Assembly (NCBI GenBank): GCA_051439505.1
Contig: JBFRWI010000140.1
Span: 1 to 16,642, forward strand
Length of the DNA stretch: 16,642 bases
Origin: Hormoscilla sp.
GTDB taxonomy: Bacteria; Cyanobacteriota; Cyanobacteriia; Cyanobacteriales; Desertifilaceae
Direction: 5' to 3'
Part shown: positions 711 to 13,543 of the stretch, piece by piece
Position numbering within the stretch: the first letter of the stretch is position 1
Layout: each line of letters opens with the position of its first letter
Notes under the pieces: generated by a model
Database searches by the model: none
Told to the model about the DNA's origin: nothing
Seen by the model: the letters and a program-made list of their open reading frames with translations, nothing else
Translations under genes and position numbers: made by a program

Positions 711-2207
711 CTAGTATGCGCCTTCCTTACCCAAGACAACTTTAACTGTCCTCAGCAGAATCTGGAAATCAAGGGCTAGGGACCAGTTATTGATATAGGT
801 CATATCCAGTTTAAAGGCATCTTCAAAGTCCTGAATGTCCGATCGACCTGAAACCTGCCATAGCCCAGTAATCCCAGGTAAAACATTATGGCGTAAGAAA
901 TGGTGCTCGGAAAACCCCTCAACGTCCCGGAGTGGCAGCGGACGGGGACCTACCAGACTCATTTGACCGACGATCACGTTAATCACTTGGGGCAATTCAT
1001 CCAGACTGTAGCTGCGGAGAAACTTGCCAACTTTGGTGATGCGGGGGTCCTCTTTCATTTTGAACAGGACGCCACCTTTGACTTCATTCTTGGCTTCTAA
1101 TTCCTTCATGAGTTGATCGGCATTGACCACCATTGTGCGGAACTTCCACACCTTAAAATGCCGCCCCTTCAGACCGACACGGGTCTGTTTGTAAAAGATA
1201 GGTCCTGGAGAATCAAGTTTGATCGTTATAGCAATCAGCAAATAAAGGGGGCAGCCTAAGATTAAGATTAGTCCAGCCACGCTCAAGTCGAAGATACGCT
1301 TGAGCCAAAAGTCGCTGCCCACCAAAGCTGGAGGAGAGAAGATAATCGTCGGCATGCCGCCAATTATCTCAATTTTGGGGTTTTGATTGGGGATCTCCAA
1401 CCCGATCGGCAAGATTCTCAGCAGAATGCCACATGCTTTGAGACTCCAATACAATTCCATGGGATCCCCGATCGCCTGCCAGGAGCAAACAAAAACTTCA
1501 CCTACGCCCTGATTGTAAATCTGTTCCAGGGTTTCCGGCCAGTGATCGCGACCTTCTGGTGAAGATAAATCCACATGGGCAAAAATCTCGAATTCTTTCT
1601 TACTGACCAACCGCAGGATAAGTTCCCCCTTCTCCGTATCCTGGGGACGACCAACCAGGATAATTTTGCGAGTGACTCTACCCTGATGACGGAGGCTGGT
1701 GATTATAGCTTCCACCACTAGGCGTCCTGTCAAGACAAAGATGAGACTAAACAGCCATGCCAGCAAGAAAGTTGAACGGGAAACAATTAAACCGGGCTGG
1801 TAGAGAAAAGCTATTAGTACCAGCAGAATTTGAGCCAGGGTGAGGGACTCGATCAGCCGTCCGAATTGGCGACGACTGCTGCGATCGCCATATAGTCCTG
1901 CCGCTGCCACAGTTCCTAGTGTCATCACTAATATCGGCAGCAAGAACCCTGGCTGTCCGGGAGTACTCACCAGTAGATGAAATGACTTAACACTCTTGAA
2001 CCAATCTACTTTCTCCACCGCAACTTTTGCCATTTTCCAGCTCAGAGACACGCTAGCGCCATCCAGCGCCATAAAAGCCATAGTACGAAGCCAGCCTATA
2101 ACCAGACCGCGACGCAGACCCAAAATAGTGGCAACACGTAAGTCATGCCCCTCAGAGTCTCTCTTGCTGGGCCTATACTTCTTTGGATCCGGTCGATTAT
2201 CAAACAT
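711..2207 (-). CDS. Priming sugar transferase / polyprenyl glycosylphosphotransferase (WcaJ/CpsE/WbaP-like)
   Basis: Several N-terminal hydrophobic segments followed by a bacterial sugar transferase domain: KRIFD, FKVWKFRTM, DPRITKVGKFLR, SLDELPQ, MSLVGPRP, PGITGLWQVSGRS. Confidence 0.92.
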   Translation of the reverse strand: MFDNRPDPKKYRPSKRDSEGHDLRVATILGLRRGLVIGWLRTMAFMALDGASVSLSWKMAKVAVEKVDWFKSVKSFHLLVSTPGQPGFLLPILVMTLGTVAAAGLYGDRSSRRQFGRLIESLTLAQILLVLIAFLYQPGLIVSRSTFLLAWLFSLIFVLTGRLVVEAIITSLRHQGRVTRKIILVGRPQDTEKGELILRLVSKKEFEIFAHVDLSSPEGRDHWPETLEQIYNQGVGEVFVCSWQAIGDPMELYWSLKACGILLRILPIGLEIPNQNPKIEIIGGMPTIIFSPPALVGSDFWLKRIFDLSVAGLILILGCPLYLLIAITIKLDSPGPIFYKQTRVGLKGRHFKVWKFRTMVVNADQLMKELEAKNEVKGGVLFKMKEDPRITKVGKFLRSYSLDELPQVINVIVGQMSLVGPRPLPLRDVEGFSEHHFLRHNVLPGITGLWQVSGRSDIQDFEDAFKLDMTYINNWSLALDFQILLRTVKVVLGKEGAY

Positions 2208-2757: not shown

Positions 2758-3483
2758 TTAATCAGATTGCAAATATATCTCCCTAATATCAGCAGGCAAG
2801 GTATCTAAGAGCAGTTGATAACCCTCAATAAGCTGCATTTTAACATTAGCTGGAGAAATCATCTCTCCTTCTGCTTGCAGATAGGCAGAGATCCGGGTTT
2901 CGCTCCAGTGGAAGGTCTGAGCCATCAAAATTATTAACCGCATCCCTGGCGGCACTTGCTCTAATGCCTGCTCAAGATAACACCACAGAGGCGGCGATGC
3001 TTCTTCCAGGGAATAATATATGGACTCAACTGGTGGGAGTTCAAAGCGGTTAATACAGATAGCTGTGATGTCGATCAGCCAATTTTGTAGAGTTAAAGTA
3101 TCTGTCGATAACTGTGCGATAGGATCCCTAGACGTAAGTTTATTACTCCCAGCATCATGGTACCGGAGGTAACTTTCTTGCGGTGTGACCACCTTATTCT
3201 CAGATATTCTATCAGGTCGTGACACTGCCCGCAAATCCAAGCCACGCAGTTCGTGAAATATGTGACGCCACGTAAGGGCAAATAGATAGTCTGCCTGCAC
3301 TGGCGATCGCGCCGATTGACTAATCAACGTATAAACGATCGGATAGTAGCGACAGAAAATTGCCGTGAAGTACCGACCGCATTCCGGATGAAGCTGGAAC
3401 AAGGTCAGCAATTCGCGATCGCTGTGATTAAACAGCGACTTAATAATTGTGTGATTGCATTCAGGAAACTCAGGCAGTTGCAT
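2758..3483 (-). CDS. Conserved cyanobacterial sigma-70-family-like (ECF-like fold) protein
   Basis: 241-aa ORF with family-like segments SDRELLTLFQ, YFTAIFCRY, SPVQADYLFALTWRHI, LQNWL and SPPLWCYLEQAL, plus a region-4-like C-terminus (RLIILMAQTFHWSETRISAYL). Co-oriented directly downstream of sigC. Confidence 0.65.
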   Translation of the reverse strand: MQLPEFPECNHTIIKSLFNHSDRELLTLFQLHPECGRYFTAIFCRYYPIVYTLISQSARSPVQADYLFALTWRHIFHELRGLDLRAVSRPDRISENKVVTPQESYLRYHDAGSNKLTSRDPIAQLSTDTLTLQNWLIDITAICINRFELPPVESIYYSLEEASPPLWCYLEQALEQVPPGMRLIILMAQTFHWSETRISAYLQAEGEMISPANVKMQLIEGYQLLLDTLPADIREIYLQSD

Positions 3484-8025: not shown

Positions 8026-8036
8026 GGGTATTTCCC
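8026..8036. promoter_or_regulatory. GGG-TATTT-CCC, candidate HetR box about 93 bp upstream of the hetR start
   Basis: Matches the GGG-N5-CCC HetR consensus. The motif is short, so a chance occurrence is possible. Confidence 0.35.
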
Positions 8037-8398
8037 AAAACGGTATAACACTGCTGTCCTGTTACTATCTTAGCCTTTGGATAGCAATTTTTGTCAGGGT
8101 TGGCCAGTAAATAGTTCTCACGATTGTAGCTTTGCTGGCTTTTATTGTGGATCAACTCGGGGATGATAGTTGTCAGTTGTCATTAGCTATATCTGCCGGT
8201 CACCGATGAAACGCTTTCGTGGCTTAGTTATCATCGGTGTCGTTGTGCAACGCCAATTTTTCCGCTACCGGTGAAGCTAAGATAGGGTTTTTCATCGGAA
8301 AGAGGCGGGAATCCATCGCTAGATAGATCCCACCTCGGAAATCTTATTTAAGTAGCCATCAAAGCAAATATTGTTGCTAGATGGCCCATTGCGTTAAT

Positions 8399-8707
8399 TC
8401 AGGCTTGGGAAATGAGGATGTTCGTGCATCCGAGGAAACTTTTCTCTAACCGTCCACTACCACGATGAACGAATTTAGTTATGACTTTTACTTTCGACTT
8501 TGAGGTGCTAAACTGACTACAGCGTCCACTCCCCCGAGGATCGTTATCCCGATCGCCCCCCAGGAGATTCCGTGATTCTTTGGAGAATAATTGTCTGGAC
8601 CTGCTAGATTTTAAGCAGTTAGTTGAGATCTGTTTCAGACACAGTTTACTAACCAAGAGGGAAACATATAGCAAGCTTGTTAAGGTGACAGCAGTGTGAA
8701 TAAGCAT
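8399..8707 (-). CDS. patX: PatX-like RGSGR-containing protein (PatS/HetN-type HetR inhibitor) with two RGSGR motifs
   Basis: Hydrophobic N-terminus (LIHTAVTLTSLLYVSLLVS). PRGSGR has its RGSGR at aa 58-62 (nt 8522-8536) and HRGSGR at aa 82-86 (nt 8450-8464). It lies directly upstream of hetR on the same strand. Confidence 0.8.
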   Translation of the reverse strand: MLIHTAVTLTSLLYVSLLVSKLCLKQISTNCLKSSRSRQLFSKESRNLLGGDRDNDPRGSGRCSQFSTSKSKVKVITKFVHRGSGRLEKSFLGCTNILISQA

Positions 8708-8844
8708 GGGAAAAATCGGCTTTTGAAGTTACTAATCCCCTCTTCGGATGTCTCCCAAGCCGATCAGGATAAATTTTTCGCTGCTTTACTGCGGCACGAC
8801 AAAATTATCGCACCCCCTCTTTAACGCCCATATCTATTTCAATG

Positions 8845-9244
8845 ATGGCGATCGCACAGTGGGTTAGCAACTCCCCAAATTCCGACACTCAGATTTGCCC
8901 ATGCCTCGGCGATCGCCGGTACCATCTGGTTTGTTTCTACCATCAATGGCGAGCGCACATTGGGTTAGTTAGCTACACTCGCCCATGCCTCGGCTAGCGC
9001 CGGTACCTACTCGAAGGTTTCTACCATCAATGGCGAGCGCACATTGGGTTAGTTAGCTACACTCGCCCATGCCTCGGCGATCGCCGGTACCTACTCGAAG
9101 GTTTCTACCATCAATGGCGAGCGGACAGTGGGTTAGCTACACTCGCCCATGCCTCGGCTAGCGCCGGTACCATCTGGTTTGTTTCTACCATCAATGGCGA
9201 TCGGACAGTGGGTTAGCAGTTCCTACACTGAGATTTTCCCATGC
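8845..9244. repeat. Tandem array of 80-84-bp units (4 units plus degenerate flanks)
   Basis: Units start GCCCATGCCTCGGC at 8897, 8981, 9065 and 9145 (84, 84 and 80 bp spacing). Segment 8845-8904 resembles 9194-9244. Confidence 0.93.
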
Positions 9245-13213: not shown

Positions 13214-13543
13214 CCCCGCCCGGGTCGGATCGTCTCCCCGCCCGGGTCGGATCGTCTCCCCGCCCGGGTCGGATGGTCTGACAGCCGCAGTCGGATGGTC
13301 TGAGAGCCTTGGTCGGATCGTCTGACAGCCGCAGTCGGATCGTCTGAGAGCCGCAGTCGGATCGTCTCCCCGCCCGGGTCGGATCGTCTGACAGCCGCAG
13401 TCGGATCGTCTGAGAGCCGCAGTCGGATCGTCTGAGAGCCTTGGTCGGATCGTCTGAGAGCCGCAGTCGGATCGTCTGAGAGCCTTGGTCGGATCATCTG
13501 AGAGCCTTGGTCGGATCGTCTGAGAGCCGCAGTCGGATGGTCT
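13214..13543. repeat. 15 x 22-bp tandem array: 10-nt variable block + 12-nt constant GTCGGAT(C/G)GTCT
   Basis: Parsed unit by unit; exact 22-bp period over 330 bp. Confidence 0.95.

Follow-up and report, generated by a model that had tools for sequence, protein, structure and literature searches.

A patX-type gene with two RGSGR motifs upstream of hetR

The window, by which we mean the whole 16,642-nucleotide stretch of the Hormoscilla sp. contig analysed here, carries on its minus strand hetR and, 465 nt upstream of it, a patX-type open reading frame (ORF) with two RGSGR pentapeptides (Table 1). The description in an earlier note made from the letters of this DNA, a 102-aa ORF with two such motifs 24 residues apart, is borne out in both coordinates and codons. 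Other readings of the ORF are ruled out: each of the five genus members has 3-9 stops in the remaining five frames, a 1-nt insertion in the window cuts the ORF off from the upstream Met that is in frame in the congeners, and the distance to the promoter hexamer fixes the start at 8707. The single aligned sequence (1 of 18) that is missing copy 2 comes from genus g2, whose gene has one motif, and in most orthologues copy 1 is followed by Cys.

Six-frame translation of the 6.47-Mb genome yielded 68 RG(S/T)GR matches in 12.9 million codon positions, and the window ORF was the sole reading frame with two of them. The chance probability is ~6e-4 for a 109-codon frame to contain a second copy and, jointly, ~3e-6 for a motif pair in one frame located at most 1 kb upstream of hetR. 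The feature is genuine and under selection. Outside the motif, the two repeat units are only 29% identical at the DNA level, indicating that the duplication is old, as had been proposed from the differing codons of the two copies.

Table 1. Coordinates of the patX-hetR features within the window
Feature	Position	Strand	Basis
patX-type ORF, 102 aa, two RGSGR	8707->8399	-	translation; only frame of six that is stop-free in all 5 genus members
Hydrophobic N-terminal stretch, aa 6-20, signal-peptide-like, atypical	8648..8692	-	hydrophobicity; no basic n-region, no AxA
RGSGR copy 1, aa 58-62	8536-8522	-	codons CGG GGG AGT GGA CGC; invariant in 18/18 aligned sequences
RGSGR copy 2, aa 82-86	8464-8450	-	codons CGT GGT AGT GGA CGG; in 17/18 aligned sequences
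TCCTGA, DIF1/sigma-HetZ-type -35 hexamer, 62 nt before start codon	8764..8769	-	conserved in 4/4 congeners
CGAA, candidate -10, 17 nt past hexamer	8743..8746	-	consensus comparison
Candidate element	8026..8036	-	lone short match to consensus from PMC4649674
hetR, 299 aa	7933->7034	-	Pfam and NCBIfam NF009718, 569 bits (cut-off 489)

Assignment to PatX

The ORF was the best match in the genome (aa 1-66, E 2.6e-6) of an independent PatX profile built from 30 single-motif PatX proteins, none of them from g1 or g3, and comparison of the PatX profile with the alignment of window orthologues by hhalign returned a probability of 98.4% (E 1e-14). NCBIfam PatX (NF047413.1) was also the best model for the window protein (P0001), with a score of 14 bits; this is below the 30-bit cut-off, which explains why the gene carries no PatX annotation, the cut-off being a threshold rather than a defining trait. 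Its orthologues scored 13-33 bits against the same model, two of them, P0004 and P0006 (62-68% identical to the window protein), above the cut-off. The profile match, together with a DIF1-type hexamer upstream, upholds the PatX-like assignment made earlier and supports the identification of the gene as a divergent PatX, the hetR-linked patX of this organism. PatX is established as a protein in its own right (PMC7761841, PMC5812504, PMC7377430, PMC7476756, PMC12669612). Identity with PatS was rejected (102 aa with internal motifs; only 9.2 bits against NF047415), as was identity with HetN, a short-chain reductase domain being sought without success (no Pfam family matched at E up to 0.1).

The genome contains a second patX-like gene (G000:C148:19985-20212 (+), equivalent to L306:1501-1725), which encodes 75 aa with a strong hydrophobic N-terminus and the degenerate motifs RGTSQ and TGTGRR, has a perfect TCCGGA at -61, and lies directly 3' of a 336-aa pentapeptide-repeat gene that scores below the HetL cut-off; DNA searches of the four congeners and G005 gave no match to it. 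A 13-aa PatS-like ORF in the genome (G000:C119) was treated as a chance occurrence because it has no upstream DIF1 hexamer. Duplication of the gene instead of the motif was seen in G026 (L018:563-652 and 1032-1250 (+)), where two tandem patX-like genes, each with TCCTGA at -61, precede hetR, one ending in HRGSGR and the other containing KGTGR.

The N-terminus had been described as signal- or transmembrane-like. The hydrophobic stretch is present, with 16 uncharged residues, but it is weak as a signal peptide: residues 2-7 include no K/R, there is no AxA, and the hydrophobicity of the window protein is the 20th lowest among 114 PatX-like proteins. The h-scores of the congeners fall within the lowest 8 of these 114, with the h-region broken by Lys in the congeners and in homologue P0005, and a 10-residue h-region deletion was found in P0002, the source of which is one short contig that could be misassembled. 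The 15-16-residue uncharged stretch is retained in P0001, P0003, P0004 and P0006. Judged from these features, export of PatX in this genus appears doubtful. As for the residues around the motif, Cys flanks it on both sides in 22 of the 114 PatX-like proteins, and several orthologues of the window gene have Cys on either side of copy 1, where the window protein has Gly upstream; a disulfide loop could gate the processing of motifs flanked in this way.

Promoter and intergenic DNA

Of the 114 PatX-like genes, 103 have a TCC(G/T/A)GA hexamer at -57 to -70, compared with 3 of 570 control windows, and 94 of these 103 promoters have no more than 2 mismatches to the sigma-HetZ consensus. The window promoter likewise differs by 2 mismatches from TCCGGA-N16-17-TGNA-N7-9-T, the consensus of PMC13342950, where the DIF1 motif is assigned to sigma-HetZ as its -35 box and the hexamer position that varies in the window is reported to tolerate other bases. 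The genome encodes hetZ, above cut-off, on contig C58. Transcription of the window patX from a sigma-HetZ-type promoter is likely on this evidence; between patX and hetR, no sigma-70 or terminator signal exceeded chance. Two more hetZ-like genes score below the cut-off (G000:C41:10942-12039 and C162:11523-12335), and a 241-aa ORF 3' of sigC (window 2758-3483 (-)), which matches sigma-70 region 4 weakly and has no NCBIfam family, is a possible divergent sigma-like factor.

Small shares (0.05-0.13) were present in three metatranscriptome runs. Two contigs from X1 span 8392-8816 without gaps and with 42 mismatches in 440 bases, which places a ~90% identical relative in the RNA library and is not proof of transcription; the ORF was uncovered in X2 and X3, and a metagenome scan gave one weak locus. 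The intergenic DNA also includes an 84-bp tandem repeat (3.9 copies, 87% matches, window 8897-9216) between the patX promoter and a divergent slr0373-like operon, absent from the aligned congener stretches, and a 22-bp tandem repeat of 14.8 copies (window 13218-13543).

Conservation and selection

Retention of both motifs in relatives, which the earlier note had proposed as a check, was found in all four congeneric genomes, with the same spacing of 24 residues, in all seven genomes of a second genus, g3, and in all five database homologues; genus g2, represented by two genomes, has a single motif. Neither copy varies in any of the 17 double-motif orthologues, which come from two genera ~25-28% identical overall. 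Comparison with the four congeners, which are close kin and amount to about one comparison, gave 48-54% amino-acid identity outside the motifs and, in the motif codons, 0 non-synonymous and 2 synonymous changes, with a dN/dS of 0.80-0.90 for the whole ORF and 0.13-0.14 for hetR. Within g3, all 21 pairs showed 0 non-synonymous and at most 8 synonymous motif changes (dN/dS 0.06-0.48). Synonymous changes occur in both motif copies, and indels within the ORF are multiples of 3, save for one 5-nt deletion past motif 2 in congener G004. This pattern supports purifying selection on both RGSGR motifs, in agreement with the earlier suggestion of selection on the peptide. The residue preceding the motif is variable: P and H in the window ORF, Y and Y in the four congeners, and mostly H and R in g3.

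The position directly upstream of hetR, reported earlier and true of the window, is not fixed in the genus. The presumed ancestral order, lipA-hetR-patX-slr0373-like-AAA ATPase, is retained in G002 and G004, where patX lies ~4 kb upstream of hetR with transposase-like ORFs (judged by inspection) in between; linkage is absent in G001, and patX of G003 is on a different contig. Direct adjacency is probably the ancestral arrangement. In the named collection, the HetR sequences most similar to that of the window (93% identical) come from records titled Hormoscilla sp.

Multi-motif PatX across cyanobacteria

The double motif is not confined to the window. Proteins with a signal-like N-terminus and 2-18 copies of RG(S/T)GR were identified in no fewer than 78 of the genomes sampled, and two RefSeq proteins of this kind are already named PatX; of the ten proteins looked up, four had no entry in the collection and the other named ones are labelled 'hypothetical'. 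Among 80 named hetR loci, five have at least two RGSGR in one upstream ORF, namely those of an uncultured Hormoscilla, Lyngbya PCC 8106, L. aestuarii BL J and two MAGs (3 and 4 copies). A paired-motif codon pattern matched 100 of the 401 genomes of the order, and translation of candidates confirmed a hydrophobic N-terminus followed by 2-18 RGSGR in 52 of the 401 (own genome included) from seven families; these counts include confirmed cases only and are lower bounds, the codon patterns being blind to pairs made up of RGTGR alone, to serines encoded by TCN and to periods above ~45 aa. The pattern hits viewed in families f6, f32, f8 and f2 proved to be low-complexity runs of Ser, Gly and Arg, and a looser first pattern, which matched 298 of the 401 genomes with an equally high control, was discarded.

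In the class-wide sample, the pattern matched 39 of 301 genomes and yielded, beyond the genome of the window, 26 genomes with a PatX-like gene preceded by the hexamer, 24 of these genes adjoining hetR. Among them are 21 of the 25 genomes of family f46; in two genomes of family f4 (L021:672-1169 (+) and L348), the PatX-like gene adjoining hetR contains RASGR, in place of RGSGR, 4-5 times, and some relatives have degenerate first copies (RGNGR, KGKGR). In family f6, no array was found in 28 genomes, the 4 pattern matches being all low-complexity, in a search that would miss RGTGR pairs; the HetR of one f6 member is ~90% identical to those of Anabaena and Fischerella. Short ORFs with two ERGSGR 12 residues apart were noticed in family f54 (L324, L325, L326); they have a PatS-like residue before the motif and no hexamer at -57 to -70.

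The longest arrays comprise 18 (L240:1911-2753 (-)), 17 (L241:1751-2764 (-)) and 11 copies (L239:1504-2106 (+)) with a period of 11-16 residues, and the units of the 17-copy array are near-identical. Across the relatives, periods range from 11 to 54 aa, with 23-25 aa in 25 of 130 intervals, and no cleavage-site consensus flanking the motifs was found. Neighbouring units are >90% identical in some arrays, indicating that expansion is ongoing. The HetR tree, a quick one covering 89 genes next to hetR (36 multi- and 53 single-motif) from a biased sample, required at least 7 changes of state, 5 of them forced by well-supported branches, which suggests that the multi-motif state was gained or lost repeatedly. 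Where the multi-motif gene is unlinked, a separate single-motif patX adjoins hetR in 13 of 19 genomes. The 99%-complete, 320-contig genome G050 has an 11-motif gene, and a search of all but 1845 of its bases with the window HetR gave no match, possibly because of an assembly gap.

As far as sequence comparison can tell, the multi-copy precursor is a variant of the known PatX system, and a widespread one; having two motifs is in itself nothing unusual in a series of 2-18 copies, and the interesting part is the series, which has evolved repeatedly. Profile-based PatX surveys likely undercount such genes, many of which score below the annotation cut-off. No paper on repeated-motif PatX was found in the searchable literature, the defining 2018 survey lying outside the search, and a word search of a 2025 survey paper returned no mention of multi-motif PatX. 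Both named strains were sequenced before that 2018 survey (Elhai and Khudyakov 2018), which may therefore well display multi-motif cases, the odds being near even, and Figure S1 of PMC11298460 may show one such gene.

A putative precursor of two HetR-inhibiting peptides

In Nostoc PCC 7120, PatX is exported through a Sec signal and cleaved by the S13 peptidase PatP, HRGTGR binds HetR with a Kd of 88 nM, freeing HetR from DNA, and PatX without its signal lost the inhibitory effect (PMC12756182). The window HetR keeps 6 of 6 peptide-binding residues (R223, E253, E254, D256, D270, D278) of the pocket described in the HetR-PatS6 structure (PMC4649674). The genome encodes three PBP4/S13 peptidases, the presence of which carries little weight because PatP-type peptidases occur in most cyanobacteria; searches of the genome, which is 93% complete, detected neither nifH nor nifD, and the lone strong NifH-family match proved to be ChlL.

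We consider it moderately probable that the window gene is the two-motif, hetR-linked patX of a non-nitrogen-fixing filament, likely transcribed in the sigma-HetZ manner, and that its product is exported and cleaved to two HetR-inhibiting hexapeptides, doubling the dose. In this scheme, a sigma-HetZ-type promoter would drive transcription and, by extension from Nostoc PCC 7120, the precursor would be exported and cut by a PatP-type peptidase. Cleavage would yield two X-RGSGR hexapeptides, each of which, again as in Nostoc, would bind HetR and switch it off, and two hexapeptides per precursor would amount to a doubled dose of inhibitor. Copy number might then set the signal dose, for instance for filament growth or breakage. 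Of the ideas put forward earlier, a precursor releasing two peptides appears to be the best reading, whereas tuning by the residue before the motif (P or H) fares poorly: this residue varies among relatives, and in the HetR-PatS6 structure the pocket captures the free amine at the N-terminus of the peptide, whereas the side chain of the residue that precedes RGSGR is not used for binding, and substitution of this residue left the affinity unchanged (PMC4649674). An N-terminal proline might still behave differently. The structural data, the variable preceding residue and the range of periods together favour equivalent released units over either P/H tuning or bivalence, and the variable periods and near-identical recent repeats fit units that are released one by one.

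More tentatively, and with a probability that we would put clearly on the low side, multi-motif proteins might represent an undescribed, prohormone-like 'poly-PatX' class of non-heterocystous filaments, in which an exported chain would be cut into 2-18 hexapeptides, the arrays would have expanded independently in several lineages, and copy number would tune morphogen dose and, through it, a spatial trait such as filament length or necridium spacing.

The other readings differ in where the peptides would be made and what they would bind. Should the export signal have decayed, a two-peptide precursor might be processed in the cytoplasm, like PatS, and serve mainly as a cell-autonomous or septal-junction signal. 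The missing K/R n-region and AxA of the window protein, the Lys in the h-region of the congeners and P0005, the h-region deletion of P0002 and the near-neutral evolution outside the motifs all point that way; yet four proteins (P0001, P0003, P0004, P0006) retain the uncharged stretch, the P0002 deletion could be an assembly error on one short contig, and signal-less Nostoc PatX lost inhibition (PMC12756182), and we find cytoplasmic processing unlikely. We attach a similarly low probability to released peptides whose main action lies beyond the HetR circuit, where another receptor would read them as an extracellular or density signal amplified by multi-copy precursors. Such a role is suggested by Leptolyngbya BL0902, in which transcriptomes indicate that the effects of patX deletion are largely HetR-independent (PMC11298460), by the single-motif patX that occupies the place beside hetR in 13 of the 19 genomes whose multi-motif gene is unlinked, and by the 11-motif gene of G050, which is accompanied by no HetR match to the window query in all but 1845 bases. 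Against it, the window gene and 24 of the 26 class-level multi-motif genes adjoin hetR, all six peptide-binding residues of HetR are retained, and the conserved unit is the exact known HetR ligand.

Bivalent binding, in which an uncut two-motif segment would occupy both clefts of one HetR dimer, had also been raised earlier, and we now regard it as very unlikely. The dimer does offer two peptide clefts, and 25 of the 130 intervals measure 23-25 aa; but in the HetR-PatS6 structure a free N-terminal amine is needed, N-terminal extension to 7 or more residues is sterically hindered and the C-terminal carboxyl is close to Arg223 (PMC4649674), periods vary from 11 to 54 aa, many arrays have an odd or large number of copies, and a 30-mer, once exported, would need to re-enter the cell. 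That only one motif matters, or that the gene is a decaying vestige with a second copy retained by chance, is more improbable still, having been largely refuted by conservation: the whole-ORF dN/dS near 0.9 within the genus, the single motif of g2 and the degenerate first copies of some relatives would suit it, but both copies are invariant in all 17 double-motif orthologues, across genera ~25-28% identical, and synonymous changes have accumulated in both motifs.

Significance and comparison with known systems

The role of HetR and PatX in filaments that never form heterocysts is an open question (PMC11298460, PMC12756182). Natural precursors in which an identical inhibitor unit occurs 1 to 18 times provide a dose variable that is directly testable in Anabaena or Leptolyngbya, and those with multiple motifs are ideal substrates for mapping the excision of the hexapeptide, itself unsettled. 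If multi-peptide processing is true, bacteria would possess a counterpart of polyprotein hormone precursors, one that arose several times through tandem duplication.

The closest counterparts by architecture are the two RefSeq entries named 'heterocyst-inhibiting protein PatX', WP_009786836.1 (Lyngbya sp. PCC 8106, 2 motifs) and WP_017716326.1 (6 motifs), both of which, unlike the window protein, pass the NCBIfam PatX cut-off and bear the name that this model assigns. The Lyngbya protein resembles that of the window in having two RGSGR 24 residues apart and a gene directly upstream of hetR, but the Lyngbya pair belongs to a separate branch of the HetR tree. Leptolyngbya sp. BL0902 shares with the window a patX immediately upstream of hetR, the non-heterocystous habit and the TCCTGA promoter variant, and differs in the HetR-independent effects reported for it (PMC11298460). 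PatX of Nostoc/Anabaena PCC 7120 (Asl2332, 77 aa; NF047413.1) is similarly short, with a hydrophobic N-terminus, an internal RG(S/T)GR, a DIF1-type promoter and co-occurrence with hetR; it has one HRGTGR in place of two RGSGR and a functional signal peptide in place of an atypical signal-like stretch, and the window host, in contrast to PCC 7120, has no nifH or nifD matches. PatS (13-17 aa) and HetN share the RGSGR ligand with the window protein, but PatS, which is tiny, has its motif at the C-terminus and lacks a signal peptide, and HetN is a reductase-family protein. Finally, multi-copy peptide precursors are familiar from yeast prepro-alpha-factor, from FMRFamide precursors and from the multi-core precursors of cyanobactins, in all of which a signal or leader is followed by tandem short active peptides with variable spacers. 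The likeness of multi-motif PatX, the processing of which is predicted, to these precursors is an analogy of design and not a homology.
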